Shown here: positions 6,336-54,732 of the stretch, piece by piece
Numbering within the stretch: the stretch's first letter is position 1
How the letters are laid out: the number at the start of each line of letters is the position of its first letter
Program-made: the position numbers and the translations under genes
Origin: a virus
IMG/VR virus record: IMGVR_UViG_3300019487_000319
Length of the DNA: 64,000 nucleotides
Strand: one strand, 5' to 3'
The notes under the pieces: model-generated
The model's input: the letters and a program-made list of their open reading frames with translations, nothing else
What the model was told of the DNA's origin: nothing
Databases searched by the model: none

Positions 6336-6415
6336 CCATCATACATATCATTTTAAATTCCGACCCACCAATAATAAAAATACGCTTGTATCATACAATT
6401 TCTATTTATTGCAAT

Positions 6416-6763: not shown

Positions 6764-6764
6764 T

Positions 6765-7321: not shown

Positions 7322-7322
7322 A

Positions 7323-7589: not shown

Positions 7590-7655
7590 ATACCGAAATA
7601 ATTTGTCTCGGAATATAATTTGTTATCTACTCTAAAAATCCCATATATTAATTTT

Positions 7656-8885: not shown

Positions 8886-8886
8886 A

Positions 8887-9738: not shown

Positions 9739-10598
9739 ACCAATCTCTCTAAGTAACTTTTATAATCACTTTTTGGTAGGCTTCCTACCGATTCCTTAAA
9801 TTGTTCTTTAGAAATGAAACCATTTACTAAACATGATTCTTCATAACATCCAATCATTATTCCCTGTCTTTCTTGGACAGATTGAATGTATGCTGATGCT
9901 TGAAATAATGTGGCTGGGGTACCGGCATCCAACCATGCTGTTCCTCTTTCCATAATTTTGGCTGTTAGTGTTCCTTCTTGCATATACATTTTTAACAAAT
10001 CCACTATTTCTAACTCCCCTCGTGTGGATGGCCTTAATGTATTAGCAAAATTAGAAGCCATTCCATCAAAATAATACAGACCCGGTATAGCATATTTACT
10101 CTTTGGTTGTATTGGTTTTTCTTCTAAAGAAATAACGTTACCCATTTTATCGAACTCAACTACACCATAAGCTCTTGGATTATTAACTTCGTATCCAAAC
10201 ACCGACGCTCCTTTTGGTGGAGTTATAACATATTTGTATTTATCAGGAGGTTGAATATTTCCATGAAATATGTTATCTCCGAGAATCAAACAGGAGGGTT
10301 TTTCTTCCAAGTAATCCTCAGCAATAATTAATGCCTGAGCTAATCCTTTTGGTTGGTCTTGAATCGCATATTGTATGCACAATCCCCATTTGTTTCCGTT
10401 TCCTAATAAGTTTTTGTAAAAATCAATGTATTGAGGGCTTGTTATCAATAATATCTCTTTTATTCCGTTATTGATTAAAGTGGTCAACGAATAATAGACC
10501 ATCGGTTTATCATATACAGGCAATAGTTGTTTATTAACCATTGTTGTCAATGGATATAATCGAGTTCCTGACCCACCTGATAAGATTATGCCTTTCAT
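9735..10598 (-). CDS. rmlA: glucose-1-phosphate thymidylyltransferase
   Basis: MKGIILSGGSGTRLYPLT...KQLLPVYDKPMVYY...PKGLAQA...LGDNIF...EKP..PKS.YA..GLYF. Canonical RmlA blocks at 287 aa. Confidence 0.9.
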   Translation of the reverse strand: MKGIILSGGSGTRLYPLTTMVNKQLLPVYDKPMVYYSLTTLINNGIKEILLITSPQYIDFYKNLLGNGNKWGLCIQYAIQDQPKGLAQALIIAEDYLEEKPSCLILGDNIFHGNIQPPDKYKYVITPPKGASVFGYEVNNPRAYGVVEFDKMGNVISLEEKPIQPKSKYAIPGLYYFDGMASNFANTLRPSTRGELEIVDLLKMYMQEGTLTAKIMERGTAWLDAGTPATLFQASAYIQSVQERQGIMIGCYEESCLVNGFISKEQFKESVGSLPKSDYKSYLERLV

Positions 10599-10850
10599 TT
10601 ATTTACTTTGATGATTTTGATTTAAATAATTAACAATTTCATTTACCAATTGATTACATCCTTCTTCGGATTCTAATAAAGCCAGATCGCCGTCGGTGAG
10701 GCCAAATACAAACACCTTTCCGAGAGTCCACACAGCAAGTTCAACATCTGTATCCTTACATGTAATAGAATGACTTCCAGTAAATGATTCCCCCATTGCT
10801 TTCAGGGGAAACGTTTCATTAAGTAGTTTGAATAGATGTCTGGTTTTCAT
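10599..10850 (-). CDS. hypothetical protein
   Basis: 83-aa ORF immediately upstream of rmlA on the same strand. Confidence 0.5.
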   Translation of the reverse strand: MKTRHLFKLLNETFPLKAMGESFTGSHSITCKDTDVELAVWTLGKVFVFGLTDGDLALLESEEGCNQLVNEIVNYLNQNHQSK

Positions 10851-11589
10851 TTTTGTTTAATCTTTCTTTCCAATTCCACACAAGAGGTTTTACAAACATT
10901 ATCTTTTGTGGTGATTTAGTTATTATGTATTCTTTTCCTTCGTCGTATCCATACTTCTCAAGAGCAGCTTTTGGGTCTTTTCTTGCTAATTCTCCCCTAG
11001 CTCCTGTTTCCTTTTTCCATAAACCCAATGGGCCTTTTCTAATAGAATTTCCTGATGTCTTTCCTACTTCTATCCAATTAGATGCACGGTATATCGCACC
11101 GTTTCTTAATTTCTCTCCATTATATTGTTCTACTCGTTCCGGTTGAACATAGGTTTCTATCATCAGTAACGGTTGATTATACTTCTCTTTCCATCTTTTT
11201 GCACCTTGTATGGATAATTGTTTTAAAACCATACTTCCGGTATTTTTTATGGTTATATTCTTTTGAATGAAACAACAACGAGAATTGTTTGCTAACATTC
11301 CTAAATTCTTGATTCTAGTTTCTTTATCCCATCCGATATAGTCATCTCGACAGGATATAGCAATAGTTGCAGAAGATAAGCCGATGGCTCCTATGTGATT
11401 ACCGGATTGAGTTTCGTAGATTAACCATCGTATGTTTCTGGTAGGGGAATCAGTATATTTTACGTAAGAATGGTATTTATCAATAGTTTCTCTGAATAAT
11501 TTGTTCTGTTCCGGAGAGGAACATTCTACTAAAAATACCGGCGTTTTTACAGTATCAGAGTAATCAAATATGGACAAAGAAAAAGACAT
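10819..11589 (-). CDS. DUF4338-family protein (Druantia DruA-type domain)
   Basis: Ordered blocks CRDDYIGWDKETR, LANNSRCCF, KNTGSMVL, LLMIETYVQPE and NGAIYRASNWIEVGKTSG match the DUF4338 consensus as I recall it (RD.%IGW / nNsRFL / N.aS / ETFVD / G.cYrAaNW..vG.T.G). Confidence 0.65.
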   Translation of the reverse strand: MSFSLSIFDYSDTVKTPVFLVECSSPEQNKLFRETIDKYHSYVKYTDSPTRNIRWLIYETQSGNHIGAIGLSSATIAISCRDDYIGWDKETRIKNLGMLANNSRCCFIQKNITIKNTGSMVLKQLSIQGAKRWKEKYNQPLLMIETYVQPERVEQYNGEKLRNGAIYRASNWIEVGKTSGNSIRKGPLGLWKKETGARGELARKDPKAALEKYGYDEGKEYIITKSPQKIMFVKPLVWNWKERLNKNENQTSIQTT

Positions 11590-13103: not shown

Positions 13104-14312
13104 TTAACGTCCCACATCGTTAAAATATATCTGTCTAGCTTTTTCATAGGACATTCCACTCATATCTCCATAAAAGAGTTTCGTAGAGTTGAGCGGACCT
13201 GATGATTTTAATTTCTTATATCGTTCTATGGCTTTTGGTCGCCACCAATCCAATATGGCTTTTGTATCATACTGAAACAGTGGTTTCAAAATCAAATCCT
13301 TTTCTTCGATTTTATTTGATAGAAATTCTTTTGTGTTTTCGTAAAAACAAGAATAATATACACCCCGCTCAAATCCATGAACATAGTTAGATGATTTGAT
13401 TTGAGCAGAATCGAATATCATATTTATGACTCTTAATTTAGCTCCTGTAACAGGACCAGAAACATCTTCCTTCTGTGTCATCTTTTTCTCATATTCAGAT
13501 GATTTGTTTATCTTAATCCAATCATGCCACTTCTTATAAATTTTTTCTTCAGGTTGAATGGCAATCTTGCCGGCCGACGTTCCGCATTTATGCCACCATT
13601 TTAAACTATTATACATGGAGAATGAACCATAAAGGCTTGTCGTCGTCATTCCTACTAAAACAGAATCATACGTCCGTTTCCAAGCATCTCTGACTACTTT
13701 GGAAACTACCATTGCAGCGGATAACTTTCCTCCTAAGAATGGATAACCAAATGGTTGAGTAGAAACAATCGTTGTTCCAATTGCTGAATTAACTAATTTT
13801 CCTTCCTTGAGTTTATTATCCATTGACCATCCAATATAATTGTCTCTATCTCCAATGGAAATTACATCACTGGCAATTGAACATATTCCTAAGATTCTTG
13901 GATTATCAAGATTTCCATCATGGATCCAAAACTTCATAAATCTACCAGGTGCCTGATTAAATTCGGCAGAACTACAAAAATAACGAAGTGTGGTCCACAT
14001 TTTGTCATCTTCTTCGTTATCTATCAATTGAATTGTTGGAACCATGTTTTCAATTTCTTTTATGGTTCGTTCTTCATCCATGATATCTTCTGGTGCCCAT
14101 ATTTTTGCCTTGGCTACGCCAGCACGATTAAGGTGAGAATTCATAGCCTTTCTATCAGATATTTCTTCCCATTTTTTTCGAAAAGTAAATTCCTCAACAC
14201 TCAATGATTTAAGATAATCCATATTTTCTATCAACTTCCTTGTTTCTACATTAAGGTTAAATGAAGCTTGGGATGGTGCTGACTCAAAAAATATATCCGA
14301 TGTATCTGCCAT
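13104..14312 (-). CDS. DUF4338-family protein, long form (402 aa)
   Basis: GRFMKFWIHD...ILGICSIASDVISIGDRDNYIGWS...NSAIGTTIV...GGKLSAAMV...VLVGMTTTSLYGSFSMYNSLKWWHKCGTSAGK. Same block order as 10819-11589, but highly diverged. Confidence 0.6.
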   Translation of the reverse strand: MADTSDIFFESAPSQASFNLNVETRKLIENMDYLKSLSVEEFTFRKKWEEISDRKAMNSHLNRAGVAKAKIWAPEDIMDEERTIKEIENMVPTIQLIDNEEDDKMWTTLRYFCSSAEFNQAPGRFMKFWIHDGNLDNPRILGICSIASDVISIGDRDNYIGWSMDNKLKEGKLVNSAIGTTIVSTQPFGYPFLGGKLSAAMVVSKVVRDAWKRTYDSVLVGMTTTSLYGSFSMYNSLKWWHKCGTSAGKIAIQPEEKIYKKWHDWIKINKSSEYEKKMTQKEDVSGPVTGAKLRVINMIFDSAQIKSSNYVHGFERGVYYSCFYENTKEFLSNKIEEKDLILKPLFQYDTKAILDWWRPKAIERYKKLKSSGPLNSTKLFYGDMSGMSYEKARQIYFNDVGR

Positions 14313-15378: not shown

Positions 15379-17649
15379 TCATACCTTCTTTAAAAAAAGT
15401 CCGTTCATCGTTTTTGCAATCTGCCCAACCTGCGTAACATCAATCATACTAGCGTCTTTTCCATACATTGAACGGAATTGTTTTTCCGTTGTTTGGGTCG
15501 CCATTCCTAAAAATCCACCGAAAGCATTTACACTTTTATAATCCGATTCTATAAAATAACTCAGTATTTTAATACCATGTGACCGCATAATATTAACCTG
15601 ACGTTTGGTGTGTTTCACAGCTTCTTCACCACCATAAGAAAATCCTTTTCCACCGCCGCGGTCATAAAAACAATAACACGGTTCACCGTCTGAAATGTTT
15701 ACGAAGTAATGGTCTTCTCCATTGGATCGTTTATTTATTACACAATCCGTCATGATTGCTTCAAAGGCCAATCCTTCAGGAGTTGCACCACCAGCTTTCA
15801 AAAATGGAAAAATCTGGCGTATCTTACTTGGTTTATCAACTTCTGAATCATATATGATAACAATATATGGAAGACTTGCCTTATCCATATCATGTGTTGT
15901 ACGAAGAGAAACCGACACATGTAAATTTTGAATCATCGAACATGCTTGACACAATGCTGCCAACAGTGTCATCGTAGGCAACCATTTTGTACTACAATCC
16001 ATCGAACCACTGGCATCCACCGAAATATGAAGTTTGGCTGTATTAAACTGGTCCATCTGAATCTTATAAAAGAGATTTTCTACTCCTGCACCAAACTCCG
16101 CTATAATTCTTTTTTCTAATTTACCGGAAGAGCGTCTAATATATTTAATGATGTTGGTTTCATTTCTGATTTGAAGTTTTCTTCCCAATCTTTTACCCAT
16201 AGCAATACCCTTCATTATTGCTTCCAAATTTTCTTTATTAGGTTCAATTCCACCTAATGCTATTCCGGGAGATTCTTCATGTGTAGAAAGAGGAAAGATT
16301 TCCTTTCCAGAAAACAATAACGATTTTGTCAGATTTTTTACAACGATACAATCGACTTTTCTTATGACTCCTTCAGAATTTTCTGGACTAAAATGAGCAT
16401 GAGAAATATGAATTCCTGATTGTTCAACGATTTCTAAAATCTTAGCTCTTTCGGCCGTCAAGGTTTCCTTTACCGAATCAAAATCATTCATTAACATTTC
16501 TTTCGTCTGTTCAAAATGTTTTTGAATTTTATCTCGTTGTGATGGGGTGAATTCACTTAAATCACCACGAGGGTCATCTTCCGTAGTCTTACCATCTTCA
16601 ATTTTTTCGGCTTGAGTAGGCATGCCTCCCAATACGTCCTCAATTGATTCAGATTCCGACTCTGCCAACTTTTCTTTTTCAGATGATGGTTCACCGGTTT
16701 TTTCTTCTTTATTTTCGGAATGTTCTCCGGATTTGCTTATTTGTGTCGCGGACGGATCATCTTTATTCCCATCAGGTTCATTAGATGGTTCATTAGAATT
16801 ACCACTCAACACATTTTTTATCTGCTTAATTGTAGAATTGGCTCCACCACCGTTATTGGCTTCTTTTTTCTTTTTATCGATTGCATCTAATATCATTTCG
16901 ACAATTTTGAATGAGAGAGTCATTCTATCCGATGTAGTCTTTTCTCTTAAAATGGTTGATATATCGAATAAAGCATTTATCTTTCTTAATTCCGGCAAGG
17001 CATCTAAATCAGTCGCGGGATTGGTCAAATATATGATTCTATATTCGTAGGATTCCAAATTATTGAGACGATATCCCTTCGATTTAAGCGTTGCACTTAT
17101 TGCTTTGGAATTCCAAAGCTTATCATACAATGCTTTATAATATCCTCGGTATCCGGGACATGTTTTGAAGGCATAGGCATCAATATATCTGTCTTCGACA
17201 ACATTGAACATCATTTTACAAAAGTGAGCTACTTCTTCTTTTGTGACTCGCTTTTCTTTGCCCTTCTTATACAGTTCCGATGGAATCTTATTCCAAATAG
17301 ACCTAAATATATTAAAATCCGTTTTAACGATGTGCATTGATTCGTGTAATGCTAATCCGACACACCAATCAAAGTCGGATTTTTTTCTAACGGAAGCTGA
17401 CAAAAAAACAGTTTTTCCATCGGTTGCTCCGGTACTTCCGGCAGGTAAATATTTAACAGGTATGGATGGGTTTGTAGCAATGGATACAAAGTTAGAAATG
17501 ACTTTTCGATACGATGCCAATAAAATTAAATCCATTGTAAATAACTTACCCTCAGTTGTGGTTTCTTTATCATGATTTATATAATCATCGATAGACGTGC
17601 CGTCCAACCAGAAATCGGAATAACACGTATCTTTATCTACAACATCCAT
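15379..17649 (-). CDS. CobT-like VWA-domain protein (N-terminal HExxH region, acidic linker, C-terminal von Willebrand A domain)
   Basis: LALHESMHI (HExxH, aa 102-106), a long Glu/Ser/Lys-rich linker, and the MIDAS-type HISVDASGSMD motif. It lies directly upstream of an AAA+ partner. Confidence 0.7.
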   Translation of the reverse strand: MDVVDKDTCYSDFWLDGTSIDDYINHDKETTTEGKLFTMDLILLASYRKVISNFVSIATNPSIPVKYLPAGSTGATDGKTVFLSASVRKKSDFDWCVGLALHESMHIVKTDFNIFRSIWNKIPSELYKKGKEKRVTKEEVAHFCKMMFNVVEDRYIDAYAFKTCPGYRGYYKALYDKLWNSKAISATLKSKGYRLNNLESYEYRIIYLTNPATDLDALPELRKINALFDISTILREKTTSDRMTLSFKIVEMILDAIDKKKKEANNGGGANSTIKQIKNVLSGNSNEPSNEPDGNKDDPSATQISKSGEHSENKEEKTGEPSSEKEKLAESESESIEDVLGGMPTQAEKIEDGKTTEDDPRGDLSEFTPSQRDKIQKHFEQTKEMLMNDFDSVKETLTAERAKILEIVEQSGIHISHAHFSPENSEGVIRKVDCIVVKNLTKSLLFSGKEIFPLSTHEESPGIALGGIEPNKENLEAIMKGIAMGKRLGRKLQIRNETNIIKYIRRSSGKLEKRIIAEFGAGVENLFYKIQMDQFNTAKLHISVDASGSMDCSTKWLPTMTLLAALCQACSMIQNLHVSVSLRTTHDMDKASLPYIVIIYDSEVDKPSKIRQIFPFLKAGGATPEGLAFEAIMTDCVINKRSNGEDHYFVNISDGEPCYCFYDRGGGKGFSYGGEEAVKHTKRQVNIMRSHGIKILSYFIESDYKSVNAFGGFLGMATQTTEKQFRSMYGKDASMIDVTQVGQIAKTMNGLFLKKV

Positions 17650-17652
17650 AAT

Positions 17653-18627
17653 TTAGAATTTATGGGTTTTTAACCCTCCCTTTTTTCCCTTGATAGGATT
17701 AGGTGCGGCAGAAGCATTGGTATCAATATATTTCTGAACCAATTGTTTGATATAAAGTCTTTCGGATTCCGTTCCGCCATCTTTATCAAACATTGGATAG
17801 ATGGATAATTCTGCTAACTCTTTAAGAGAAAATCCGTCAATAACCATCTGAGCCATTTCAATAACAATACCGGTGGGAATGAATCGGGAAATAGGAGCGT
17901 CGTCTAATTTAGCCTGTTTCTTTGTATCATGTGAAATATTACAAATATCATTGAAGTAGTCCTTGTTTTCTTCAAAATCATTTTCAAATAAAATTTTCAA
18001 TAACTTCATCTCTCCGTCAAAATCCAACGGTTCCATTTCAACGATGACCGGAAATCGACGAGACGTGGCTTCATCGATGACTTTCGTTGCGGTATATTGT
18101 AATCCTATGTTTGTAGTAGAAACAAACGTAATACTGGTAGGAATCTTGATGATTGAGGATTCTACTGATTCATCCAACCGTAAATATCTTTGTGTAGAAT
18201 CCAAGACCGGCATCAATATATTCCAAGCATCATGATGTCCACGAGAAAGTTCATCTAGTAGAATTACTGCATTCTCAGTTTGTATTGCTCTAACAAATTC
18301 CGATGGATTAAATATCGTTCCTTGCTCTTTTTTGAATGTGGTATTTCCAATAAGTGTTGCCCGGGCATCTTGTGTAGAACCAAGATTGAAATAGAAGAAG
18401 GGTCTATTCAATGCTTTTGCGACGGATTGAGCGGCTTTGGTTTTTCCGCATCTTGTCGGTCCTACTATTAAAACGTTTCGACCTCGTAACACTGCCCATA
18501 CCAAACCCTTCCATTGTGTTTCGTCTATAATCAAATCCTTTGGAATTAAAGACTTGGAATCAGTAAGCATTTGCGTAACATCTACGTTTGACATATCGTT
18601 GAGAATGGAGTTTTTCATTACCTCCAT
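17653..18627 (-). CDS. CobS/MoxR-type AAA+ ATPase
   Basis: Walker A is VLIVGPTRCGKTKAA and Walker B is VILLDELSR. At 324 aa it is adjacent to the VWA protein, as in CobS/CobT and MoxR/VWA pairs. Confidence 0.75.
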   Translation of the reverse strand: MEVMKNSILNDMSNVDVTQMLTDSKSLIPKDLIIDETQWKGLVWAVLRGRNVLIVGPTRCGKTKAAQSVAKALNRPFFYFNLGSTQDARATLIGNTTFKKEQGTIFNPSEFVRAIQTENAVILLDELSRGHHDAWNILMPVLDSTQRYLRLDESVESSIIKIPTSITFVSTTNIGLQYTATKVIDEATSRRFPVIVEMEPLDFDGEMKLLKILFENDFEENKDYFNDICNISHDTKKQAKLDDAPISRFIPTGIVIEMAQMVIDGFSLKELAELSIYPMFDKDGGTESERLYIKQLVQKYIDTNASAAPNPIKGKKGGLKTHKF

Positions 18628-18656
18628 ACTATTCCATACTTTTTATACAATGTCAA

Positions 18657-18688
18657 GAAAGAAAAAACGTGTTGTGAACCAACACGTT
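18657..18688 (-). terminator. rho-independent terminator after 18706-19209
   Basis: The minus strand reads AACGTGTTGgttcaCAACACGTT (9-bp stem) followed by TTTTTCTTTCTT. A TTGACA box follows immediately. Confidence 0.6.
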
Positions 18689-18705
18689 CTATATTAGAAA
18701 GCGAA

Positions 18706-19209
18706 TTAAGCTACCGGTGCAGTAGGGGCCGGTGGTGTTGCGGCTGCCGGTGCTGGTGTAGGTTCACCCGTAGGAATGGTATCGGATTCGTAACGAGCCA
18801 TTCTCTCAAGAATATTTTCAAGTTTTTCATATTCAGGAAACTCTGAAAATCTCGATTGAATTCCTTCTCCATTGTTTGCATTTTTTACTGTTCTAACAAA
18901 AATAACAGGCATCGTATGAGACGGAGAAAAATAAACACTTTCTACTACATCAATATCATTATCCGTAATATAATGTCTCGTGTATGCATGATGATTGGCA
19001 TCCCATTTGAATCCGAATAATTCCAATGAATCTAAGTGGAGTTGTTCTGTAGCCTGCTGACCATCGACGATTTGGGGGACAGGGAATTTCATTTTCATAA
19101 ATCCCAATTCCTTCAACGTCTCAATTTGGTCTTCGGTAAAAGCATCCATTCCTTTCAATACTTCACGAATGGTTTCTTTTATTAATGCTTTAATCTCATG
19201 TTTTTTCAT
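18706..19209 (-). CDS. hypothetical protein with a conserved N-terminal leader (candidate virion-internal protein)
   Basis: 167 aa. The N-terminus MKKHEIKALIKETIREVL is shared with the next two genes. The tail is PT/A-rich. Confidence 0.55.
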   Translation of the reverse strand: MKKHEIKALIKETIREVLKGMDAFTEDQIETLKELGFMKMKFPVPQIVDGQQATEQLHLDSLELFGFKWDANHHAYTRHYITDNDIDVVESVYFSPSHTMPVIFVRTVKNANNGEGIQSRFSEFPEYEKLENILERMARYESDTIPTGEPTPAPAAATPPAPTAPVA

Positions 19210-19210
19210 A

Positions 19211-19477
19211 TTATTTCTTGAATCCTAATCCGGCCACGTCACCTATTCCAGCTATGAATTTTCCGATCTTATCACTCCAATTAGCATTTCGTGCAGACCT
19301 CCATCCGTGTTTAAATCCAGCTTTAAATTCTTCAGACATGTGTGAATAGTCTCCGGCTTCTCCCTTTAGATGGTCGTTCATTCCTTGTCTAAATCCTTTT
19401 TTGTATTCGTTGGATTTTCCAGATAAATCAGTAGTAATTATCTCTTTAATGACTTGTTTAAGTTCATCCCTCTTCAT
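19211..19477 (-). CDS. hypothetical protein with a conserved N-terminal leader
   Basis: 88 aa, N-terminus MKRDELKQVIKEIITTDL. Confidence 0.55.
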   Translation of the reverse strand: MKRDELKQVIKEIITTDLSGKSNEYKKGFRQGMNDHLKGEAGDYSHMSEEFKAGFKHGWRSARNANWSDKIGKFIAGIGDVAGLGFKK

Positions 19478-19481
19478 ATCA

Positions 19482-20270
19482 TTATTTTAATTTAGGTGTT
19501 TTCTTAGGATTTACTACCAATTTTTTATCAACCTTATGTTTCAGAGGCTTGACTTTGTTCTCAGTTTCCTTGAAATCTCTTTGGTGCTTGATATCCTTTT
19601 CATCTACCGTTTTCATTGGTTGATTTGGCTGGTCTTCATCCTTTTTGACTGCCTTCTCATTGTAATCTTTTTCATCGTTTTTGGTGTCGCCGACTTCTTT
19701 TCTTTTTGGCTTATTATGTTGTGGCAAATCACTCTTGTCTGATTTATCTTCCAAATGGTTCATCGCCTTTTCTCTTGCTTGGTCCACCTTCGTATCCTCT
19801 ACATCTTGGAAATTAGCTTTTACAAAATTCTTTACTTGTTCCCACGTCAAGGCTATGGCACGAACTCGGTCATCGAGATTTACCATTGCTTCAATGTTGA
19901 ACATGTCTTCGGCAGTTTGAGAAATACGAACACGGAGTAGCGGCTTTGCATCTACATTTAAATCGTTATGGTCATCCCAATAAACCAAAAAATCTTTATC
20001 AATTTCTTTTACAATTTTACTAAGTTGATCCATCATTTCGGCTCTAGTTGCATCCAATCGTTCGTTACCCGTTTTCTTATATCCCTTATCGATGGTTTCT
20101 TTTTCTTCTTTGGTTGGTTCGGGTTTTGTTACGTTGGTTATTTCAGATAAAACCTTCTTGACAATTTTTCGTAACGACTCCTTGACAACTTGTTTTTTAG
20201 ACGTGGCTCTCTCGGTTAGGACTTCATCCCAAGATTCTCTTACAAGTTTTTTTAATTGGTCTTTATTCAT
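19482..20270 (-). CDS. hypothetical highly charged protein with a conserved N-terminal leader
   Basis: 262 aa, N-terminus MNKDQLKKLVRESWDEVL. The remainder is Lys/Glu/Asp-rich. Confidence 0.55.
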   Translation of the reverse strand: MNKDQLKKLVRESWDEVLTERATSKKQVVKESLRKIVKKVLSEITNVTKPEPTKEEKETIDKGYKKTGNERLDATRAEMMDQLSKIVKEIDKDFLVYWDDHNDLNVDAKPLLRVRISQTAEDMFNIEAMVNLDDRVRAIALTWEQVKNFVKANFQDVEDTKVDQAREKAMNHLEDKSDKSDLPQHNKPKRKEVGDTKNDEKDYNEKAVKKDEDQPNQPMKTVDEKDIKHQRDFKETENKVKPLKHKVDKKLVVNPKKTPKLK

Positions 20271-20304
20271 ATTTATCTCCGATATGAGTATAAATATTAC
20301 AAAG

Positions 20305-21078
20305 TCAACTAAAAAACGGATTTTCGGTCTTATTATCGACTTTGATTTCCTCTATTTGTTCCTTATAGATAGTATCTTTTGGATAGGGTAAAAATGGGTG
20401 TTTTAGATTGGCTAATATTTTCTTCTTTTCGACCTTATTTCCCAATAAATACACATATCGATGTTTGGTGGATTCTTTTTTCCTCCAGAACGTTTTACCG
20501 ATGGTCTTTTTCAAATGTTCTACGTTATGAGAACCATAAGTGGAAAAGGCGGTTCTTGAATGCATCCATTTATACGGTGGCCCGATTTCTGAAATAGAAT
20601 AATTAGGCATTAAAGCTAATGAAGAATTCCCTTGATAGTAAAATCCTGAAGCCTGATAGATGGTTCCTCTGTGACCTTGTTCATTATCAGCATAACTTAT
20701 TACGGCTTTAACGTTAGGAAGATGCTTTGTCAACATCGATAAAGTCTTTGATATACAATAACTTTCTATATTTTTGCCGTATCCATCATAAATGACTAAT
20801 CGGGTTAATTCCGTAACTTGTTCCAAGGTTATGAGTGGAGATATAGATTCGGCTGCACTTCTTCCAACCGGGCCGCCGTAGATGACTGTTCCGATTAATT
20901 TTTCCTCATTGCCTTCAATGAATTGGGAGGGAGTTTTTGTATTAATGAAGATACCAAAAGCCACATCACATAGGGTCCATTTGTGACTATAATGATTTTT
21001 TTCGACAAATGATTTACCTATATCTTTAGGAATTACCCGTATTGACACGAGTGATGTATCGACATAACCTTCTTCCAT
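20305..21078 (-). CDS. Mom-like acyltransferase-fold protein (candidate DNA-base-modifying enzyme)
   Basis: FVEKNHYSHKW, AFGIF, IGTVIYGGPVGR, ELTRLVI..GYGKNIESY and VISYADNEQGHRGTIYQASGFYYQG. This block order is that of the phage Mu Mom family as I recall it. Confidence 0.6.
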   Translation of the reverse strand: MEEGYVDTSLVSIRVIPKDIGKSFVEKNHYSHKWTLCDVAFGIFINTKTPSQFIEGNEEKLIGTVIYGGPVGRSAAESISPLITLEQVTELTRLVIYDGYGKNIESYCISKTLSMLTKHLPNVKAVISYADNEQGHRGTIYQASGFYYQGNSSLALMPNYSISEIGPPYKWMHSRTAFSTYGSHNVEHLKKTIGKTFWRKKESTKHRYVYLLGNKVEKKKILANLKHPFLPYPKDTIYKEQIEEIKVDNKTENPFFS

Positions 21079-21092
21079 AACTTCTTTTAAAG

Positions 21093-21389
21093 TTACACCA
21101 GTTTGGATTCCAACAAAAGATTTTTTAATTCGGTTTCGTTTTTATATATTACCAGCTTAATGTGAGGGTGGACGCTTTGGATATAATTCTTTAAAAACGT
21201 TGTTAGTGAAACCGACCCGTTCTGATGAATGAATCCTATACTACATGCATCTACTTTACCCATATTTACATCCAACAAAAAACTTTTATAGTCGTTATAT
21301 GCATTTGTTACACATTTAACAGAGGATATTGTTGATTTTACATTGTTTTTTTCGTCGAAGATGAAAGCTTTTAATTTTGGAGTATTCAT
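21093..21389 (-). CDS. hypothetical protein
   Basis: 98-aa ORF, co-oriented with its neighbours. Confidence 0.5.
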   Translation of the reverse strand: MNTPKLKAFIFDEKNNVKSTISSVKCVTNAYNDYKSFLLDVNMGKVDACSIGFIHQNGSVSLTTFLKNYIQSVHPHIKLVIYKNETELKNLLLESKLV

Positions 21390-21394
21390 TGTTG

Positions 21395-21763
21395 TTACTT
21401 GTTTTCCAACTCGGAAATCCGGGTTTTTTGACGAAGAATTTCTTCTTCATTGATAGAGTTTTGTTTGTTAAGGAGAGTGATTTCTCCCTCACAACGTTCC
21501 AATAACTCTTTAGTATGAGTGAGTTCAATAGTCATCGACTCAATTTTTTTCTTATACTCCGAAACTTCTTCTTGAGACTTTTCTAGTTCTTCCCAAATTT
21601 CCTTCCTCATTTGAGCTTCCGCATTAGTCACCGACTCTATTGCTCTTACCTGCATATCCGTCATTAGTTTCATCTGTTGTAATCTAACTCGTTTATTAGC
21701 AATAAAATACGTAACAATCATTGTTATTAGAGCCGGTATAATCGTTGCTAATAATTCCATCAT
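21395..21763 (-). CDS. N-terminally membrane-anchored coiled-coil protein
   Basis: MMELLATIIPALITMIVTYFIA followed by a heptad-like charged region. Same architecture as 12790-13059. Confidence 0.5.
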   Translation of the reverse strand: MMELLATIIPALITMIVTYFIANKRVRLQQMKLMTDMQVRAIESVTNAEAQMRKEIWEELEKSQEEVSEYKKKIESMTIELTHTKELLERCEGEITLLNKQNSINEEEILRQKTRISELENK

Positions 21764-21833
21764 ATAAGAAATCGCCCACCTTATGTGGACTCATATTATA
21801 AATATGATTGGGTTTTTCTAAAACTATAAAGAA

Positions 21834-24800
21834 TTAAGATTTTGGTTTGATTTCGCAAACATCATTGCTGCAAAACCTTTCTACGTCCGCTTCTTCGTGT
21901 TTTATTCCTTTAAACCTCACAGGTTTTAATTTAGAGGATAGTTCATCGTAAGTTTCAATAGAAATGGTTTCGTAGGGCATCTGTTCGTATGCACCCTTTT
22001 CTGTAATAGGCAAAAATGAAATACCTTTTAGTTGATATTGATAGAAATTTAAAAGATGTTTGATTTGGTTCGCTTCATCCTTTCTAAAAGAAATGGTACA
22101 TGAAACTTGATTGTCTGCCCAATATCTTTGTAAGAACGCTGCCAGTGCAGCTTGTTCCCATATACTTACATCTTTAACTGGTCTTAGATTATCACCAATC
22201 TTGACAGGAATTTCTACAACAACAGTGGTATCTTCCGACCCCTTACAATCTTCGATGTGATATCCGGCTTCTTTTAATGGTCCAACTAAATCACTATATT
22301 TTGAAAGTCGCATTCTCCTTATGTAACAAACATTTTCTGGAAAATGAACGCCGGGGGTCGCACCGGCGACCAAACTCACCGTTCCACTTGGTTTGATAGA
22401 AGTCTTCTTTATACTTTTTGGTATGGCTAACCAATCGGAATATACTTCATCATAATACTCAATTTTTTTGTATCCCTTTTCGCACCATGTTTTAAATTCG
22501 TCTATTCCACGGTTAGCTAAAAATTGAACTATACCACTCATACTACAACCTATTCTTCTATTTCTTAACATTACTCTATTAGTTTCCGGCCAATGAGTTT
22601 GACCCAACGTCACTGTCTTGGCATACAAATATGCATATTTAAGTGTAACGAGAAAATCATCAAGATTTTCATGATTATTTGGGAATGTTTCAACTAAGCA
22701 GCATAATTCATAGCTTTCCAATGATTGTTCGAGACAATTGATTATTATAATCCCATCTACTTGATTATCAGAAACTTGTGTAATAATTGAATAATTATAA
22801 TTATCATCTACTGTAATGTTATATACATCTTCTTTTTCTGATAAAAATGTCACCGATTTAACTCGATGATTGTATCCTTTTTCTTTTTCAATTAATTCTT
22901 TGTAGCTTTTTAGAACGTAAGGATTTTCGGTTTTAAGAGATTCTGGATTTCTTATTCTAAAAGAAATTTTTCTATTTCGGCATTCTCTTTCCCATTCTTT
23001 CTTTAAAGGATTCCTATCCAAAGATTGTTTCAAGTCTTTGAATATCATAATTTGTTGATGTAATGTGTCTCTTTGTTTATTCTCAAAGTGGATCTTCTGC
23101 CCCTCTTTTCTAAATTTGATTTGTCCTTCGTGTTTATTTTGACATGAATGTGAACAAAATACAACATGGCGACTTCCCCAAGATACTATCATTTCATCAT
23201 TACATGTAATACATTTCTTCTTTGCAAACATTCGTTCGTTTACCCAAACTGTTTCTAAATCTGTCTTTTTTGATTGTTCTATATAGTATTCTTTATCCCA
23301 TTCTTTTTTATTTTTTTTCATTTTTGATGAATATAGTTCTCTACATTCGTCAGTATGAGAATTGGACAATCTTTTTAAATACTCTACATCTTTGCATCTT
23401 TCTTTCGTTTTTTCTCCAATTAATTTTTTCGATTCTTCCGTATGTTGTCTTCCAAACATAGGATTGTTTTCTCCTTGATTATCGTGGTCAGCATGAAATT
23501 TACAATGATCCTTAAATGTCATTAATTCTAGGTTATCTATAGAATTATTTAATCCATTATAATCTTTGTGATGAACAACTATTCCACCTTTACACCACCC
23601 ATTTGATTTCGATTCATTATATAGTTCGTTCCATTTTTCTGGATTGTGAAATTTAACAATTAAACGATGTTCCATTTCTCTTTTCCTTTTTACATCATTT
23701 GTATCCATGCTTACAATATAATATTTATTAGGATTATCCTTAAACATCTTTTCTTTTCTTTTTTGAAATCTTGGAAGAGAGTCTCCAATTTTTAAATCTT
23801 TAGCACGACACGTTTCTCCATTTAATAAAATCATTTTGTGGTCTGGAGTGACTCTTAATTTTCCTCCTTCTTCAAATTCTATTTCTACCAATTCTGCATT
23901 TTCTCTAGTCTTTCTTGGATTTCTTCCCCACTTTATTTCTACCATTCCACTTTTATTCATAGAATATACTGCAACATCATTTCCTTCTTCTGCTAATTCT
24001 TTTATAGAAACTGCATTTCTTCCGTCTGCAACTGCAATGAGAGTGTCTCCGGTTAAACAAGGATTACCCCCTTCAACCCGATGGTCTTTGTGGTCCATTC
24101 CATTATTCATCCTTGAATATCCTTTCATATTTTCCAACCAAGCATATCCCGGCTCACCATTTACTTTAGTTCTCTCGGCAGCATTGGAATAATCCATTCC
24201 CAAATCACAAAAGATAGAATTGTTTGATGTCCATCCATATTCAGACCGATGTGGATTCTTTTTATAATTTTTTAAATCCAAATATTCTTCTGAGTTGTAG
24301 TCACCAAATACAATTTCAGCCGTTCTTCTTACATTTCCAGCAACAACACACTTTCCAATAAGATTCATAACATCAACAATAGTAGTTGTTGTTATTAGGT
24401 GTCCTACATTTTTATCAAAAATTACACGAAGGGTTTTATGAAGTTCAATCAAGGGTTGAGAACCGGATGAAACACCACCGAACCCTTTAATTGGTTCGCC
24501 CGCGGCTCTTATTAATGAATAATCGAAATGAACTTCCTTGGTTTCAAGTAGATAGGATTCGATTAAAAGTTTTGTTGATTCGACCCAACCCTCTCTCGTA
24601 TCAGCAATTTTATAAATATTGTCGGGTGATGGGCTTGGTTTCCCTACTTTAATTTTCCCTGACCCTTTACAATCAAATCCAACACCAACACCCAACATTG
24701 ACATATCCATCAAAAAACAGAATGATTTTGACACATCCTCTTTTATGGTTGAGGTCGAAACGAATGCACAGTTATTTAGTGCGGCATATAAATGTCTTTC

Positions 24801-25133
24801 TTCGGTTATGGGGCTTCCCATCGACCACAATCCTCTTCCGGGAGGAAGAAATTTCATATTGAACATTCTATCATACATCTCTTGGGCAGATTTTTGAGCC
24901 TTTATTGAATTCCATCCAAGTTTATGTTGTTCAATCCATACCTTTTGCATGTTGAACGTTCCTTCTACTACTCGTTGAATTGTTTCCCACCATCTTTCAT
25001 TATCTCCATTGGCTTTCAAACGGGAGTATGTTCTTAAATAAACTAATGCACCTAGTCCATTGAATCCGAACGGTGGTTTTTGTCTTTTATATTTATCGAG
25101 GAAGCTATCAGTCAGCCGAAATTTACCATCCAT
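21834..25133 (-). CDS. nrdJ: class II (B12-dependent type) ribonucleotide reductase precursor, interrupted by an intein
   Basis: RTYSRL...ERWWETIQRVVEG at the N-terminus and a C-terminal Cys pair (CSNDVCE). The active-site motif GGNP/CLEQSLESYELC is split by 441 aa. The exteins total 658 aa. Confidence 0.85.
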   Translation of the reverse strand: MDGKFRLTDSFLDKYKRQKPPFGFNGLGALVYLRTYSRLKANGDNERWWETIQRVVEGTFNMQKVWIEQHKLGWNSIKAQKSAQEMYDRMFNMKFLPPGRGLWSMGSPITEERHLYAALNNCAFVSTSTIKEDVSKSFCFLMDMSMLGVGVGFDCKGSGKIKVGKPSPSPDNIYKIADTREGWVESTKLLIESYLLETKEVHFDYSLIRAAGEPIKGFGGVSSGSQPLIELHKTLRVIFDKNVGHLITTTTIVDVMNLIGKCVVAGNVRRTAEIVFGDYNSEEYLDLKNYKKNPHRSEYGWTSNNSIFCDLGMDYSNAAERTKVNGEPGYAWLENMKGYSRMNNGMDHKDHRVEGGNPCLTGDTLIAVADGRNAVSIKELAEEGNDVAVYSMNKSGMVEIKWGRNPRKTRENAELVEIEFEEGGKLRVTPDHKMILLNGETCRAKDLKIGDSLPRFQKRKEKMFKDNPNKYYIVSMDTNDVKRKREMEHRLIVKFHNPEKWNELYNESKSNGWCKGGIVVHHKDYNGLNNSIDNLELMTFKDHCKFHADHDNQGENNPMFGRQHTEESKKLIGEKTKERCKDVEYLKRLSNSHTDECRELYSSKMKKNKKEWDKEYYIEQSKKTDLETVWVNERMFAKKKCITCNDEMIVSWGSRHVVFCSHSCQNKHEGQIKFRKEGQKIHFENKQRDTLHQQIMIFKDLKQSLDRNPLKKEWERECRNRKISFRIRNPESLKTENPYVLKSYKELIEKEKGYNHRVKSVTFLSEKEDVYNITVDDNYNYSIITQVSDNQVDGIIIINCLEQSLESYELCCLVETFPNNHENLDDFLVTLKYAYLYAKTVTLGQTHWPETNRVMLRNRRIGCSMSGIVQFLANRGIDEFKTWCEKGYKKIEYYDEVYSDWLAIPKSIKKTSIKPSGTVSLVAGATPGVHFPENVCYIRRMRLSKYSDLVGPLKEAGYHIEDCKGSEDTTVVVEIPVKIGDNLRPVKDVSIWEQAALAAFLQRYWADNQVSCTISFRKDEANQIKHLLNFYQYQLKGISFLPITEKGAYEQMPYETISIETYDELSSKLKPVRFKGIKHEEADVERFCSNDVCEIKPKS
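22737..24059 (-). mobile_element. intein (441 aa) carrying an HNH homing endonuclease with a NUMOD3-like motif
   Basis: It begins with Cys1 (CLTGDTLIAV, codon TGT at 24059-24057) and has block B RVTPDHKM. The HNH region is VVHHKDYNGLNNSIDNLELMTFKDHCKFH, followed by GENNPMFGRQHTEESKK. It ends VYNITVDD...GIIIIN, followed by the +1 Cys (codon at 22736-22734). Confidence 0.85.
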
Positions 25134-32636: not shown

Positions 32637-32681
32637 AACTTGTCGCTATGACTATAAATATTCAAATAAATTCGAAAACCC

Positions 32682-43611: not shown

Positions 43612-44559
43612 TTATATTTGACCCGAAATCCGTTTGTTTAATTCCTGTCTTTGCTTTTCAAGATCAGGTATAACATCTCTTCTCATTCTCTCTACATCCC
43701 TTTTCTTGTAGTCAAGTTCTTTTTTCTTTGTAGCTAAATCTCTTTCAGTGGCTTGTTTTTCTTTTTGTGCATTAATTTTAGCTTGTGCAGTATCTTTAGC
43801 TCTTTGTTCCGAACTGTAATCAGGTTCATCCAATCCAATCTCTATCCCACTAGGCGTTGCAGATAGCGGAGGATCACCCATTAATTCCAAAATACATTCT
43901 CTTACTAAATTAGTAATGTATTCTTTCATATCAGGTTTAGAGGGCTTAAAATTTACATCTTGTGAAGAAAATTTATCTACCAAGAGTCTAAAAAGGCTTG
44001 GGTCGAACCAACCGAATACCCATTGAAAGAATTTTCTTTTATTGTCTTCGGATTGTGTTTTTGCTCCTAATGCGTTTCTTATATCGGTAGAGTTTACTTC
44101 CTTCCCATCTACCTTAGCATCTTCTACAAAGATGACATATCCATGTTTTCTTCCTACTTCCATGTTGTTTTTATTTGATTCGTAAGGTTGAAAATATGAC
44201 TCTGTTCCCTTGCCTGTTAACCACACTTCTTTTCCGTTTTTTTGTCCAACGGAAATTATAAATCTAGGTTTATCTTTGTTGCTGACAGCAAATACAATTG
44301 CAGCATCAGGATATTTTTGAACAACTTCAACCGGAGAATATCCATTTTTTACTTTGATAACATGACTTGAAGGGATTCCATGTTTTACCCATATTGCTTC
44401 TTTTTCTGCAAAGGATAAAGGAAAATGAGTCGGCTCTACTTTATCCGAAGAAACAATAAATGTATCAGGACCAACCACACTTTTTAATTTGTTATAAATA
44501 GACAAATGTCCTTTATGTGGTGGTTGAAATCGTCCGTTGTATATTCCTATTGTTTTCAT
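43612..44559 (-). CDS. nucleotidyltransferase of the cytidylyltransferase/NMNAT superfamily with a C-terminal coiled-coil extension
   Basis: IGIYNGRFQPPHKGHLSIY is the (H/T)xGH motif in a GxFxPxHxGH context. The C-terminal third is Lys/Glu-rich. Confidence 0.55.
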   Translation of the reverse strand: MKTIGIYNGRFQPPHKGHLSIYNKLKSVVGPDTFIVSSDKVEPTHFPLSFAEKEAIWVKHGIPSSHVIKVKNGYSPVEVVQKYPDAAIVFAVSNKDKPRFIISVGQKNGKEVWLTGKGTESYFQPYESNKNNMEVGRKHGYVIFVEDAKVDGKEVNSTDIRNALGAKTQSEDNKRKFFQWVFGWFDPSLFRLLVDKFSSQDVNFKPSKPDMKEYITNLVRECILELMGDPPLSATPSGIEIGLDEPDYSSEQRAKDTAQAKINAQKEKQATERDLATKKKELDYKKRDVERMRRDVIPDLEKQRQELNKRISGQI

Positions 44560-45341
44560 TATGACACGTAATTCGTGAGTTCATATCTTCCAGTAGGCAT
44601 TCTGTAAATGCTTATATGGAGATATTTCTTGGTCGGCTTGCCCTTATATTGTAAAAGTTTGTAATGGGTATCCTTATGTTGTTCATATCCAATGCCACCA
44701 TACATATATGGTTGACGAATACCGTATTTGTCGGCTTCGCTTTGTTTATGTTCACTTGGGTCAATAACAATCTTGTTACTTTCAATGAACTGTTCAACCG
44801 CTGCTAGTGTTTCAGAAAGATTTTCGTAGAAGGGTTTATTTGTTTCAGTGACCGGGTCTTTCTCAGGTTGTGGTTTAATTATTGCATGACTATAACCCAA
44901 ATTTTCTCTAATTAAAGACTTGATGATTTCTTTCAATTCTTCTACGGATATTTTTGATTCTCGGATATCAGCCCAAGTGAGTCTATCAGGACCATTCGTT
45001 TCATAGTCGCCGATTCCTTGATCATCATCGTAGTGATATCGAGATGCTTTAACATATCCTTGTATGTTTCCCACTTCGTAAAAATTGTAATTGGCTTGGG
45101 CCACATCTTTTGCTACTTGATCTACATCTTCCTCAGTTTCTAAATCCATTCTTCCTTCACCATATTCGTAACGAATAAATAAAACTTCATCGCCTTGAAC
45201 TCTTTTTTCCACGGCAATCCATTGATAGTTGTTTCCTTGAGTTGGGTAAAACGCAATGAATTCGCCTTCTTTAATTTTATAAATAAGACCTAAAATGTCA
45301 TCTGGCGATTTTGACGGAAGTGGCTTAATTTCTCTATTCAT
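44559..45341 (-). CDS. hypothetical two-domain protein
   Basis: 260-aa ORF with an internal EELKEIIKSLIRENL segment between its two halves. Confidence 0.55.
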   Translation of the reverse strand: MNREIKPLPSKSPDDILGLIYKIKEGEFIAFYPTQGNNYQWIAVEKRVQGDEVLFIRYEYGEGRMDLETEEDVDQVAKDVAQANYNFYEVGNIQGYVKASRYHYDDDQGIGDYETNGPDRLTWADIRESKISVEELKEIIKSLIRENLGYSHAIIKPQPEKDPVTETNKPFYENLSETLAAVEQFIESNKIVIDPSEHKQSEADKYGIRQPYMYGGIGYEQHKDTHYKLLQYKGKPTKKYLHISIYRMPTGRYELTNYVS

Positions 45342-45371
45342 ATCACCATATAAATATGTTACATATCTTCT

Positions 45372-46694: not shown

Positions 46695-46707
46695 CTAATA
46701 TAAATAT
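46695..46707 (-). promoter_or_regulatory. conserved box ATATTTATATTAG (late-promoter-like), 36 nt upstream of the tube gene ATG
   Basis: The plus strand reads ctaatataaatat. The identical 13-mer is at 52208-52220, with near-identical copies at 58114-58127, 45346-45357, 51811-51822, 54734-54746 and 42496-42508. Confidence 0.4.
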
Positions 46708-52245: not shown

Positions 52246-52887
52246 TTAATAGGTAAATTTCTTAAAAACAGAATACGGTTTATTCAAAGCTTTTAAGGCA
52301 ATTTCTACTTCTTTAAGACATTCATTTATTCCTCCACCTGTCAAAACAATATTGTTATATTGTTTCAAAAAATCCATCAAATCAGGAATATGAACACAGT
52401 CGGCCGCTGCCTGTAATAATGTATAAACTTCTTTCTTATCTATACGTCTATACTGTCTTAAATATTTTGCCCACATTTCTCTATCCATATCTCGTGAATC
52501 ACGAATGTTATTTTCATACATGAATCTTACAAAGTTAGCGACAGAATCTTCATCAATACTGTTATCCATACAATACCTAAAGAAAGCATAACCCTTATCG
52601 TAGAAAATTGAGGTATCTAAAACACTTTCGTCTAAAGCGTTGTCTAATAACCACGTCTTATAGTCTTGTTCGGACACCATTCCCATTGTGTCTTCTCCAT
52701 TATACAAGAAAATAATTTTGTAAGCTTCGTTATCTATACTGTTTAACCACTCACACCATTCGTGAGGTTTAAAAAATATTCCACCTTCATATTCTGGTTG
52801 AATATCAACATTCATTATAACTTTTCCCGAAAAAGATTCTTCTATTATAATGGATTTAAGAGAAGTCATTATAATTTTTTCCCTCAT
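52246..52887 (-). CDS. possible isochorismatase/nicotinamidase-fold hydrolase
   Basis: MNVDIQPEYEGG (compare VDxQNDF), FYDKGYAFF (Lys block) and IVLTGGGINECLKEVEIAL (nucleophile Cys block) occur in the D-K-C order of cysteine hydrolases. There is a large insertion, and the call is from pattern only. Confidence 0.35.
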   Translation of the reverse strand: MREKIIMTSLKSIIIEESFSGKVIMNVDIQPEYEGGIFFKPHEWCEWLNSIDNEAYKIIFLYNGEDTMGMVSEQDYKTWLLDNALDESVLDTSIFYDKGYAFFRYCMDNSIDEDSVANFVRFMYENNIRDSRDMDREMWAKYLRQYRRIDKKEVYTLLQAAADCVHIPDLMDFLKQYNNIVLTGGGINECLKEVEIALKALNKPYSVFKKFTY

Positions 52888-53352: not shown

Positions 53353-54732
53353 TTAAACATCTTCTATTTTTGTAACCCTATTCCAAGGTATTATATCACA
53401 GGAATAAATTTCATATCCTACACCAGAAGAATATAATTCCAATCCTTCGGTATTTATAGTTAAAATAACAAGAGGTTCATCCTCGTCAAATTTATCAGAA
53501 AGCCAGTTCATCAAGGCATCTTCAAGTGAAGCTCTATCATCAAAGAGATACACAGCTTTTGAACAAAATTTGGCAGGTCTATCGGGTTTAGGCAATATAC
53601 CATTAATTTTCATATTTGGTATATTCTTTTTTGGGGTTACATGATATACCACTTTAGGTTGAACAGTGATATTTTCTGCCACTAAATCTTTCCAACTACC
53701 AACCACATCTTGATCCCAATATAACACTTCAATTATATTTTTGTGTTTAAAAAATGGATGATTATAAATAAACTCTTCTGTCTTGGGATTATGATGTAGG
53801 GTGGATTCTTTTGTATCGTCTGTAACAAGAAGAGAAACATTATCACCCTCCACATACACCAACAAACAAACATAATTGTTATCTACCTTGTTTTTTAAGA
53901 ATTTCCTGACTTGATAATGATATGCTTTATCTCTATCCCAACCATAAGCATTGTTACCACTTAAAATTAATCCATATTGGTCATATTTAGTTATTTCTTT
54001 TATTTCTCTTGGTGTAGGATTTATAAAAACTTCTACATAATCCGACTTACCTGCTAAATTACTTTCAAATGAATCAAGAAATTTTTCTGATATGGTTCCA
54101 GTATTTACTATTCCCTTAGCCTGATAATCTCTTATGTCATCTAACGTAGATTCACCACCCTCAACGAACCAATGAGCCATAGAACCTAATCCATGAATAA
54201 AATTTAAAAGTTGGTCTATTTTTAAGAGTTGGCCTTCCGGAGTGTGTTCCAATTCCACAGATTTAGCCATTTTATATAATGTTCTACTTCTATCGCTGTA
54301 TCTTCCGTTCCCACCGGAACCAATTTCACCAAAATTTCTAACTAACTTAGAACCAGATTTATCTGAAATAAAAGTGAACCATCTTTCCCATTCTTCCTCG
54401 GTAATATCTTTATAATTCTCCTTTTCAAAGAAGCTATCTGCTAATACACCATCTTTTATATCACTGTTTATAAATAACTTAGATATCAAAACTCTTAAAA
54501 TATCCCATATCTTTTTTAAGGAAGATTCATCTACACGTCCATATTTTGCAAACTTCGCCCATATTAATTTTAAGTCTCTAGCAGGTACAAGTTTCCAAGA
54601 CTGATGTTTTTGACCAGAATGAAATTCAGACTTAACATCTTCTAAGATATCAATCCAATCATCATCGATAGTAGCATGTATTGATTCAACAATACATTTA
54701 TCTATTATCTTTTGAAGTTTTGATACTTTCAT
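53353..54732 (-). CDS. hypothetical protein; the C-terminal ~110 aa carry an H-Y-E-like (ADP-ribosyltransferase-type) motif order
   Basis: 459 aa with N-terminal leader MKVSKLQKIIDKCIVESI. The C-terminus reads VVYHVTPKKNIPNMKINGILP ... AVYLFDD ... GYEIYSCDIIPWNRV. Confidence 0.55.
   Translation of the reverse strand: MKVSKLQKIIDKCIVESIHATIDDDWIDILEDVKSEFHSGQKHQSWKLVPARDLKLIWAKFAKYGRVDESSLKKIWDILRVLISKLFINSDIKDGVLADSFFEKENYKDITEEEWERWFTFISDKSGSKLVRNFGEIGSGGNGRYSDRSRTLYKMAKSVELEHTPEGQLLKIDQLLNFIHGLGSMAHWFVEGGESTLDDIRDYQAKGIVNTGTISEKFLDSFESNLAGKSDYVEVFINPTPREIKEITKYDQYGLILSGNNAYGWDRDKAYHYQVRKFLKNKVDNNYVCLLVYVEGDNVSLLVTDDTKESTLHHNPKTEEFIYNHPFFKHKNIIEVLYWDQDVVGSWKDLVAENITVQPKVVYHVTPKKNIPNMKINGILPKPDRPAKFCSKAVYLFDDRASLEDALMNWLSDKFDEDEPLVILTINTEGLELYSSGVGYEIYSCDIIPWNRVTKIEDV

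Follow-up and report, generated by a model that had tools for sequence, protein, structure and literature searches.

Three tandem genes in a 64,000-nucleotide stretch of viral DNA (IMG/VR virus record IMGVR_UViG_3300019487_000319; the whole stretch is called the window below) encode proteins that begin with the same kind of 17-residue peptide, here called the leader, followed by unrelated bodies. The leader is non-random as a 17-residue peptide, and the phenomenon is much broader than was stated in the first-pass annotation of this DNA, which had been made from the letters alone. We consider, with a probability of roughly 0.55, that the leader is a prohead-targeting propeptide like the capsid-targeting sequence (CTS) of phage T4, which would be removed by a protease of the gp21 family.

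The leader peptide and the three-gene unit

The three open reading frames (ORFs) are packed tightly on the minus strand at 18706-20270, with intergenic gaps of 4 nt and 1 nt. The first gene, p262 (19482..20270), is conserved in the clade and encodes 262 amino acids (aa) with the start MNKDQLKKLVRESWDEVL and a pI of 8.9; its leader, MNKDQLKKLVRESWDEV (aa 1-17, minus strand 20220..20270), contains candidate cleavage sites after E12 (V-R-E) and E16 (W-D-E). The other two are variable accessory genes. The gene p88 (minus strand 19211..19477) encodes a basic protein of 88 aa (pI 9.5) with the start MKRDELKQVIKEIITTDL and the leader MKRDELKQVIKEIITTD (minus strand 19427-19477), and p167 (minus strand 18706..19209) encodes an acidic protein of 167 aa (pI about 4.8-5.1) with the start MKKHEIKALIKETIREVL, the leader MKKHEIKALIKETIREV (minus strand 19159-19209) and a Pro/Ala-rich tail. 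The ORF starts are those quoted in the first-pass annotation, and its statement that a shared N-terminal peptide precedes unrelated bodies is borne out, since BLASTP among the three proteins past residue 18 gave no mutual match. No Pfam or PHROGs family was matched above threshold by p262, p88, p167, p459, p213 or p260, and p262 gave only a sub-threshold match to DUF6459. Moreover, neither blastn with positions 17000-24000 of the window nor tblastn with p262 found any match in the phage collection.

The leader profile was sampled across 130 related loci, and the 47 distinct copies give the consensus M1 K2 K3 S4 E5 L6 K7 Q8 L9 I10 K11 E12 C13 I14 x15 E16 V17. The most conserved positions are K7 and E12 (41/47 each), I10 (38/47) and E16 (37/47), position 6 is L or F in 44/47, and conservation ends at residue 17 with no conserved position beyond it. 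The leader holds two tandem (I/L)-x-E motifs, I10-K11-E12 and I14-x-E16, with I or V at position 10 in 46 of the 47 copies and I, L or V at position 14 in 45. The leader is N-terminal in 34 copies and internal in 13, many of which still start with Met, and the bodies attached to it fall into 28 BLAST-distinct families. In addition, a short variant, M-I-K-L-K-x-L-L-K-E, corresponds to leader positions 6-12 and is found on many proteins, including a lysozyme-like one. The hydrophobic core of a Sec, Tat or lipoprotein signal peptide is absent from the leader, and no hydrophobic run exceeds two residues, because K or E occupies positions 2, 3, 5, 7, 11, 12 and 16.

A hidden Markov model (HMM) built from the three leaders alone retrieved further N-terminal copies in real genes of related IMG/VR loci. 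The second-generation HMM gave 18 distinct matches of at least 14 bits in the real proteomes, 12 of them belonging to its training set, and none of at least 10 bits in reversed or shuffled proteomes (252,117 aa), where the best scores were 7.1-7.2 bits. The 40-column profile used for a database-wide listing yielded 28 candidates and 3 matches. A loose pattern, h-[KRQ]-x-h-h-[KRDEQ]-[EDK] starting at residue 6, is present in 4 of the 64 genes of the window against a background elsewhere of 5e-4 per position; for a pattern picked post hoc, after inspection of the data, the probability of at least four occurrences is 4e-8 at one given position and 3e-4 when any of the first 10 positions is allowed. 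In a pattern scan of the window genes, those for the sheath, tube, baseplate, replication and glycosyltransferase proteins were without the leader. The first-pass annotation had described the peptide as a leader ending in h-x-E; the 17-residue peptide stands well clear of the controls, whereas the bare h-x-E is too common to have a meaning.

A promoter-like motif, ATATTTATA, at 20289..20297 (minus strand), precedes the ATG of p262 by about 26 nt. The window contains 11 copies against 3.4 expected, and none of 100 shuffles reached 11. Eight of the nine copies on the gene strand lie just upstream of genes, including those for the sheath and tube, at a distance of 10-60 nt; other minus-strand copies are at 58119-58127, 46699-46707, 45349-45357, 32653-32661, 21797-21805, 51814-51822 and 52212-52220. 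Upstream of the tape-measure-like gene, the eight-base core TATTTATA is present as well. Microcystis phage Mel-JY01 has the motif before its portal and tube genes, and among the related loci the motif is found upstream of gp13 in 36 and upstream of the p262 homologues in 22 of 24. It is often 9-16 nt from the ATG, which therefore suggests near-leaderless mRNAs. The T4 late promoter TATAAATA was rejected as the element on the gene strand, where the enriched orientation is TATTTATA. We regard ATATTTATA as a candidate late promoter of the lineage. At the other end, a hairpin of 11 pairs followed by a T-run, resembling an intrinsic terminator, lies at 18664..18690 (minus strand), directly after the p167 stop codon and before a CobS-like gene, and a separate sigma-70-like site precedes the latter. 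Because of the shared promoter-like motif upstream, the terminator after p167 and the separate site for the CobS-like gene, p262, p88 and p167 form one unit, probably a late one, a timing read from the motif alone.

Likeness to T4 head targeting and the alternatives

The window is one end of the 340,916-bp ENA metagenome contig ERZ27251177:k141_279683, of which about 74 of 341 kb were read (the window plus 10 kb beyond one edge, locus L033). The contig encodes T4-type homologues of the gp13 and gp15 neck proteins, a 1056-aa tail sheath, a gp19-like tube, UvsX and gp32, and by these homologies the phage is a distant relative of T4; a DnaB helicase is also encoded. The nearest isolates are Microcystis phage Mel-JY01 and Flavobacterium phages, and an uncultured 484-kb phage is also near. 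Phages of about 300 kb that are predicted to infect freshwater Bacteroidetes have been described (PMC9723584), and the size, the G+C content (about 35%) and the relatives of the present phage fit this group.

In T4, gp21 cuts after Glu in L/I-x-E, and the N-terminal propeptides of the internal proteins (IPs), 10-19 residues long, target these proteins to the prohead core; propeptides of large phages often have redundant cleavage sites (PMC9026906). Like the T4 CTS, the leader is a short N-terminal peptide ending in (I/L)-x-E on otherwise unrelated, fast-evolving proteins. A gp21-family (Peptidase_S77) protease is encoded in its lineage, the peptide is also present on small proteins adjoining that protease, and the tagged genes are scattered genome-wide as well as in the head module. 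The differences are that the leader has 17 residues with two tandem h-x-E motifs, compared with the T4 range of 10-19 residues, that it is carried by at least 28 families in the sampled loci, far more than in T4, and that some copies are internal, behind a fused N-terminal domain. The T4 head-protein starts that were retrieved are MLKEQLIAE (gp22), MAKINELLRE (gp24), MEGLIEAIK (gp67) and MNEPQLLIE (gp21). Among these core and shell propeptides, gp24 (MAKINELLRE|S) and gp22 (MLKEQLIAE|A) share an h-h-x-E ending with LKQLIKE of the leader; they are on essential structural proteins, whereas the leader is mainly on small variable accessory proteins. No sequence homology of the leader to the T4 peptides was found. 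Since its resemblance to the N-termini of gp22, gp24 and gp67 is at the level of pattern only, the leader appears to be an analogue or a very distant relative of the T4 peptide and a separate sequence family. We know of no shared N-terminal consensus described for the propeptides of phiKZ, 201phi2-1 and SPN3US. These are also large phages with many processed head proteins, which are cut after Glu at redundant sites (PMC9026906). However, their P3 residue is small (S/A-x-E) and the cuts are made by diverged gp21 homologues, whereas both candidate sites of the leader have I, L or V at P3 in 45-47 of the 47 copies.

The head modules of relatives whose gp13 is 64-67% identical have the order portal, p276, three leader-type proteins, protease, small proteins, scaffold and capsid. 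The leader-type proteins between portal/p276 and the protease have about 100 aa with a perfect leader (MKKSELKQLIRETI..), 163 aa (MKDTKQIIRELVEEVIEE) and 171 aa (MNLTDIAKKIINE), and small tagged proteins hold the positions of T4 gp67/gp68. Further tagged genes are inserted among those for the major capsid protein, gp13 and gp15, and one locus has four of them consecutively. The protease of this module (locus L089) scores 89 bits against PF03420 Peptidase_S77 (cut-off 27), the Mel-JY01 protease has the PF03420 domain too, and many of the loci with gp13 at 64-67% identity also encode the protease. In a search for homologues of the Mel-JY01 protease, the present contig was absent among the best 120 of 8000 matches, and a scan of IMG/VR with the same protein returned 12 contigs, the present one not among these. 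On the propeptide reading, an S77 protease would be encoded in the present genome as well. The N-terminal region of the relatives' capsid protein reads ..LLENQAKQLIDE|ATRTG, 10 residues before the segment aligning with residue 24 of mature T4 gp23*. Its AKQLIDE|A resembles LKQLIKE of the leader and is likely the capsid maturation site, with the cleavage position itself being a prediction. Furthermore, the capsid N-terminus MSDIKSLLTE resembles the short variant MIKLKxLLKE. Between the capsid gene and gp13 of locus L089, on the opposite strand (L089:9209-9883, minus strand), lies a gene for a 224-aa protein with a lysozyme-like domain and a short leader (MSIIKLKDLLKE).

We assume that the propeptide would act as follows. 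The three genes would be transcribed late as one unit, from the ATATTTATA promoter to the terminator, and each product would carry a 17-residue amphipathic helix, M-K-K-x-E-L-K-x-L-I-K-E-x-I-x-E-V. The hydrophobic face of this helix (L6, L9, I10, residue 13, I14 and V17) would dock the proteins onto the scaffolding core during prohead assembly, and a gp21-family (Peptidase_S77) protease would then cut after Glu12 and/or Glu16, at the redundant sites I-K-E and I-x-E. The mature proteins would be freed inside the capsid and could exit with the DNA. Docking, cleavage, packaging and ejection are all what we infer from sequence. The logic is that of T4, and what is new is the leader sequence, the phage lineage and the far larger set of tagged families. 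We also consider a wider reading, possible but rather doubtful, in which the capsid cargo of large T4-related phages is defined by the leader as a general address tag, with the internal copies serving as cleavable linkers.

Several points weigh against a cleaved propeptide. Cleavage and packaging of the leader proteins are purely conjectural, and the protease, scaffold and capsid genes are known from relatives, as the roughly 74 of 341 kb of the contig that were read contain no head module. The similarity of the leader to the CTS of T4 IPIII, taken here as MKTYQEFIAE, is limited to the pattern, and the two are not alignable. The conserved p262 is outside the head module; its neighbours are genes for replication and nucleotide metabolism and a CobS/CobT-like pair. 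The promoter motif is only modestly enriched directly upstream of leader genes, being found at 11 of 42 (26%) compared with 195 of 1458 (13%; Fisher P = 0.036). The internal position of 13 of the 47 copies is outside the precedent of the T4 CTS. Finally, p262 is predicted to have an N-terminal helix (aa 3-46), a small alpha/beta domain (aa 76-155) and a charged disordered tail (AlphaFold model with a mean predicted local distance difference test (pLDDT) score of 68.5, and 72-87 in the helix), and a fold search of this model against the PDB gave no match with E < 0.1. Because the leader opens one continuous 44-residue helix in the model, it may be a structural part of p262 and not a detachable tag. 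Many p262 homologues have a variable extension of 110-350 aa fused in frame before the leader (L002, L003, L004, L009, L011, L014-L018) with a conserved junction, ...EPRDRFQENKNM|leader, and it is this long form that the promoter motif precedes; families other than p262 also show a fused N-terminal segment ahead of the leader. At such junctions the leader could be a cleavable linker, an internal translation start or a mere linker helix. The T4 comparison drawn in the first-pass annotation holds on all points that a sequence can test: the T4-related phage, the S77 protease and the leaders at the gp67/gp68 positions in relatives, the (I/L)-x-E motif and the shared promoter motif.

The main rival is an amphipathic helix for docking or oligomerisation that stays uncleaved on the mature protein, without injection, its partner being an assembly chaperone, a neck or head component or, as a coiled coil, other small late proteins. 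It is less likely than the propeptide but has support, as the leader pattern is heptad-like, the leader of the p262 model is within the continuous helix of aa 3-46 (pLDDT 72-87), internal copies are located between domains, distant p262 homologues open with a related but different helix, MKPETFRQLIRRVLNEEVEK, and the leader genes cluster in the neck region (gp13-gp15) in addition to the head region. What a docking helix leaves unexplained is that two of the best-conserved positions are Glu with I/L at -2, that conservation ends abruptly at residue 17, and that the peptide is like both the predicted capsid-propeptide site and the N-termini of cleaved T4 head proteins. Another idea, that the helix associates with the membrane or serves export and so brings late proteins to the inner membrane, for example to a prohead assembly site of the T4 type, would suit the amphipathic character with a Lys-rich polar face and the membrane-bound assembly of T4 proheads (PMC9026906). 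It is improbable, however, given a charge at every 3-4 positions in place of a hydrophobic core of signal-peptide length, three conserved Glu that bring the net charge to about +1, in contrast to known membrane-targeting helices, and a cargo that includes acidic soluble proteins.

The remaining two explanations both seem very improbable. The leader could be left over from tandem duplication, or simply reflect the K/E/I/L-rich make-up of an AT-rich genome, without any shared function, since the three genes are adjacent, the G+C content is about 35% and many genes start with MK... This is largely refuted already by the spread of the leader over 28 unrelated families, many loci and many phages, by the unrelated bodies of the three proteins, by the strong N-terminal bias and by the absence of matches of at least 10 bits in the control proteomes. 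The other explanation is a 5' coding signal at the RNA level for translation initiation, possibly selected by a phage-encoded ribosomal protein bS21, which relatives encode in the head module (PMC9723584). The A-rich start of the leader (AAA AAA) and the distance of 9-33 nt between the promoter motif and the ATG, implying very short 5' untranslated regions, would agree with it. However, the conserved Leu/Ile positions use four to six codons (TTA, CTA, CTT and TTG; ATA, ATC and ATT), K/R alternate between AAA and AGA, and internal copies retain the peptide; the constraint is therefore on the amino acids and not on the RNA.

Further leader candidates and the genomic surroundings

The first-pass annotation had found the same peptide on four more proteins of the window, and these fared differently. 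The p459 gene (53353..54732, minus strand; start MKVSKLQKIIDKCIVESI) encodes a three-domain accessory protein downstream of the tail sheath, and its leader MKVSKLQKIIDKCIVES is a diverged copy in which I-V-E16 is retained and K11-E12 is changed to D-K; the assignment is backed by the orthologue P0191/L052, which starts MKKSELQKMVDQCIGES. The three domains (about aa 20-210, 213-352 and 357-459) are not covered by Pfam. Each occurs alone or within multidomain proteins of 500-4000 aa, in some homologues together with fused ParB-like or nucleotidyltransferase-like domains, and 1005 representative proteins match p459 at E <= 0.001. This recurrence in large multidomain proteins, some of them encoded next to virion genes, is shared with the phage polyvalent proteins (Iyer et al. 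2017, PMC5512222). Those are presumably split by peptidase domains of their own, whereas here, speculatively, a site for the head protease would lie in the linker-like leader. Homologues of domain A have the long leader, the short leader or none, which shows the leader to be a portable add-on. The p213 gene (52246..52887, minus strand) encodes MTSLKSIIIEES from Met7, as had been noted, with a possible short-variant leader, MTSLKSIIIEE, at 52869. This fits MIKLKxLLKE and is plausible as such, but it scores only 2 bits in the long-leader model. The p459 and p213 proteins are probably functionally linked, because the body of p213 is fused C-terminal to p459 domain A in the homologue P0198. A NUDIX gene sits between the two genes.

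The two interdomain segments proposed earlier are at noise level. The segment EELKEIIKSLIRENL (44898..44942, minus strand), aa 134-148 of a 260-aa protein (44559-45341), scores 5.2 bits, and MKEYITNLVRECILEL (43882..43929, minus strand), aa 211-226 of a 315-aa cytidylyltransferase-like protein (43612-44559), scores 7.0 bits, while controls reach 7.1-7.2 bits; both are, on their own, indistinguishable from chance, and the idea of interdomain processing sites within the accessory-island enzymes was based on such matches. The Mel-JY01 homologue of the cytidylyltransferase-like protein has a 27-aa N-terminal extension, MGKLINILLSELRL..., instead. The 260-aa gene is preceded by the ATATTTATA copy at 45349-45357. 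Outside the window, the contig has two strong leader copies, at L033:7475-7831 (MKISKVEFKKIIKECIKEVL) and L033:7147-7473 (..MNGVELQLLIKECIREVL), among the gp13, gp14-like and gp15 neck genes, and weaker candidates like the short variant at L033:5455-5934 and L033:379-1092. Also outside the window, L033:1089-3269 (minus strand) encodes a 726-aa fusion of an acetyltransferase and a CCA-adding enzyme with an internal short-variant segment, GLIKLKEIIYE, just past the acetyltransferase domain; in L063, a comparable segment precedes the PolyA_pol domain of a related protein of 597 aa.

In the clade, the conserved block has the order DnaB, ribonucleotide reductase, Mom, p262, CobS and CobT, into which p88 and p167 are variable inserts. 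A gene for Mom-like DNA modification (20305-21078) is directly upstream of the three-gene unit, and the ribonucleotide reductase gene (21834-25133, 1099 aa) contains an intein with an HNH endonuclease domain. After the unit, 15379-18627 encodes a CobS-like AAA+ ATPase (324 aa) and a CobT/vWA-like protein (756 aa); 25 of 31 related loci have such a pair downstream of their p262 homologue, and in several the CobS gene is interrupted by a GIY-YIG endonuclease gene. A functional link of the three genes with this pair was dropped, since the terminator and the separate promoter-like site intervene, five related loci have p262 without CobS/CobT, and most leader genes are located elsewhere. Two proteins with DruA domains are encoded further downstream (13104-14312 and 10819-11589). 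The contig end at 167-10598 is an island of glycosyltransferase, methyltransferase and sugar-nucleotide enzyme genes (NTP_transferase, RmlD-like and epimerase families). Homing-endonuclease genes are present in the tail module at 58163-58747 and 46783-48339; one, of the GIY-YIG type, immediately precedes the sheath gene, and the other, of the HNH type, adjoins the tube gene on the opposite strand.

Possible meaning for large T4-related phages

Proteins that a phage carries in its head and delivers along with its DNA are its first weapons against the host defences, and they are hard to spot by sequence. To our knowledge, an N-terminal cargo tag has been demonstrated experimentally only in T4; CTS-like sequences have also been pointed out in its close relatives. 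A clade-wide tag on at least 28 families would give a listing, from sequence alone, of candidate capsid cargo and ejected effectors, and the different spelling of the tag would predict the specificity of the head protease in an abundant, uncultivated clade of phages of about 300 kb. Foreign proteins could also be loaded into phage heads with the leader, which would be a second natural tag for this purpose. Moreover, a concrete question can now be framed, namely whether an internal copy serves as a cleavable linker where proteins are fused. If the leader were in fact a general address tag, the cargo would be large and fast-turning-over, with dozens of families including multidomain enzymes, and the hosts would probably be freshwater Bacteroidetes. 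Genes fused upstream of the leader would then enter the prohead as parts of a polyprotein to be split by the head protease, and for uncultivated phages the set of packaged and injected proteins could be deduced straight from the sequence.

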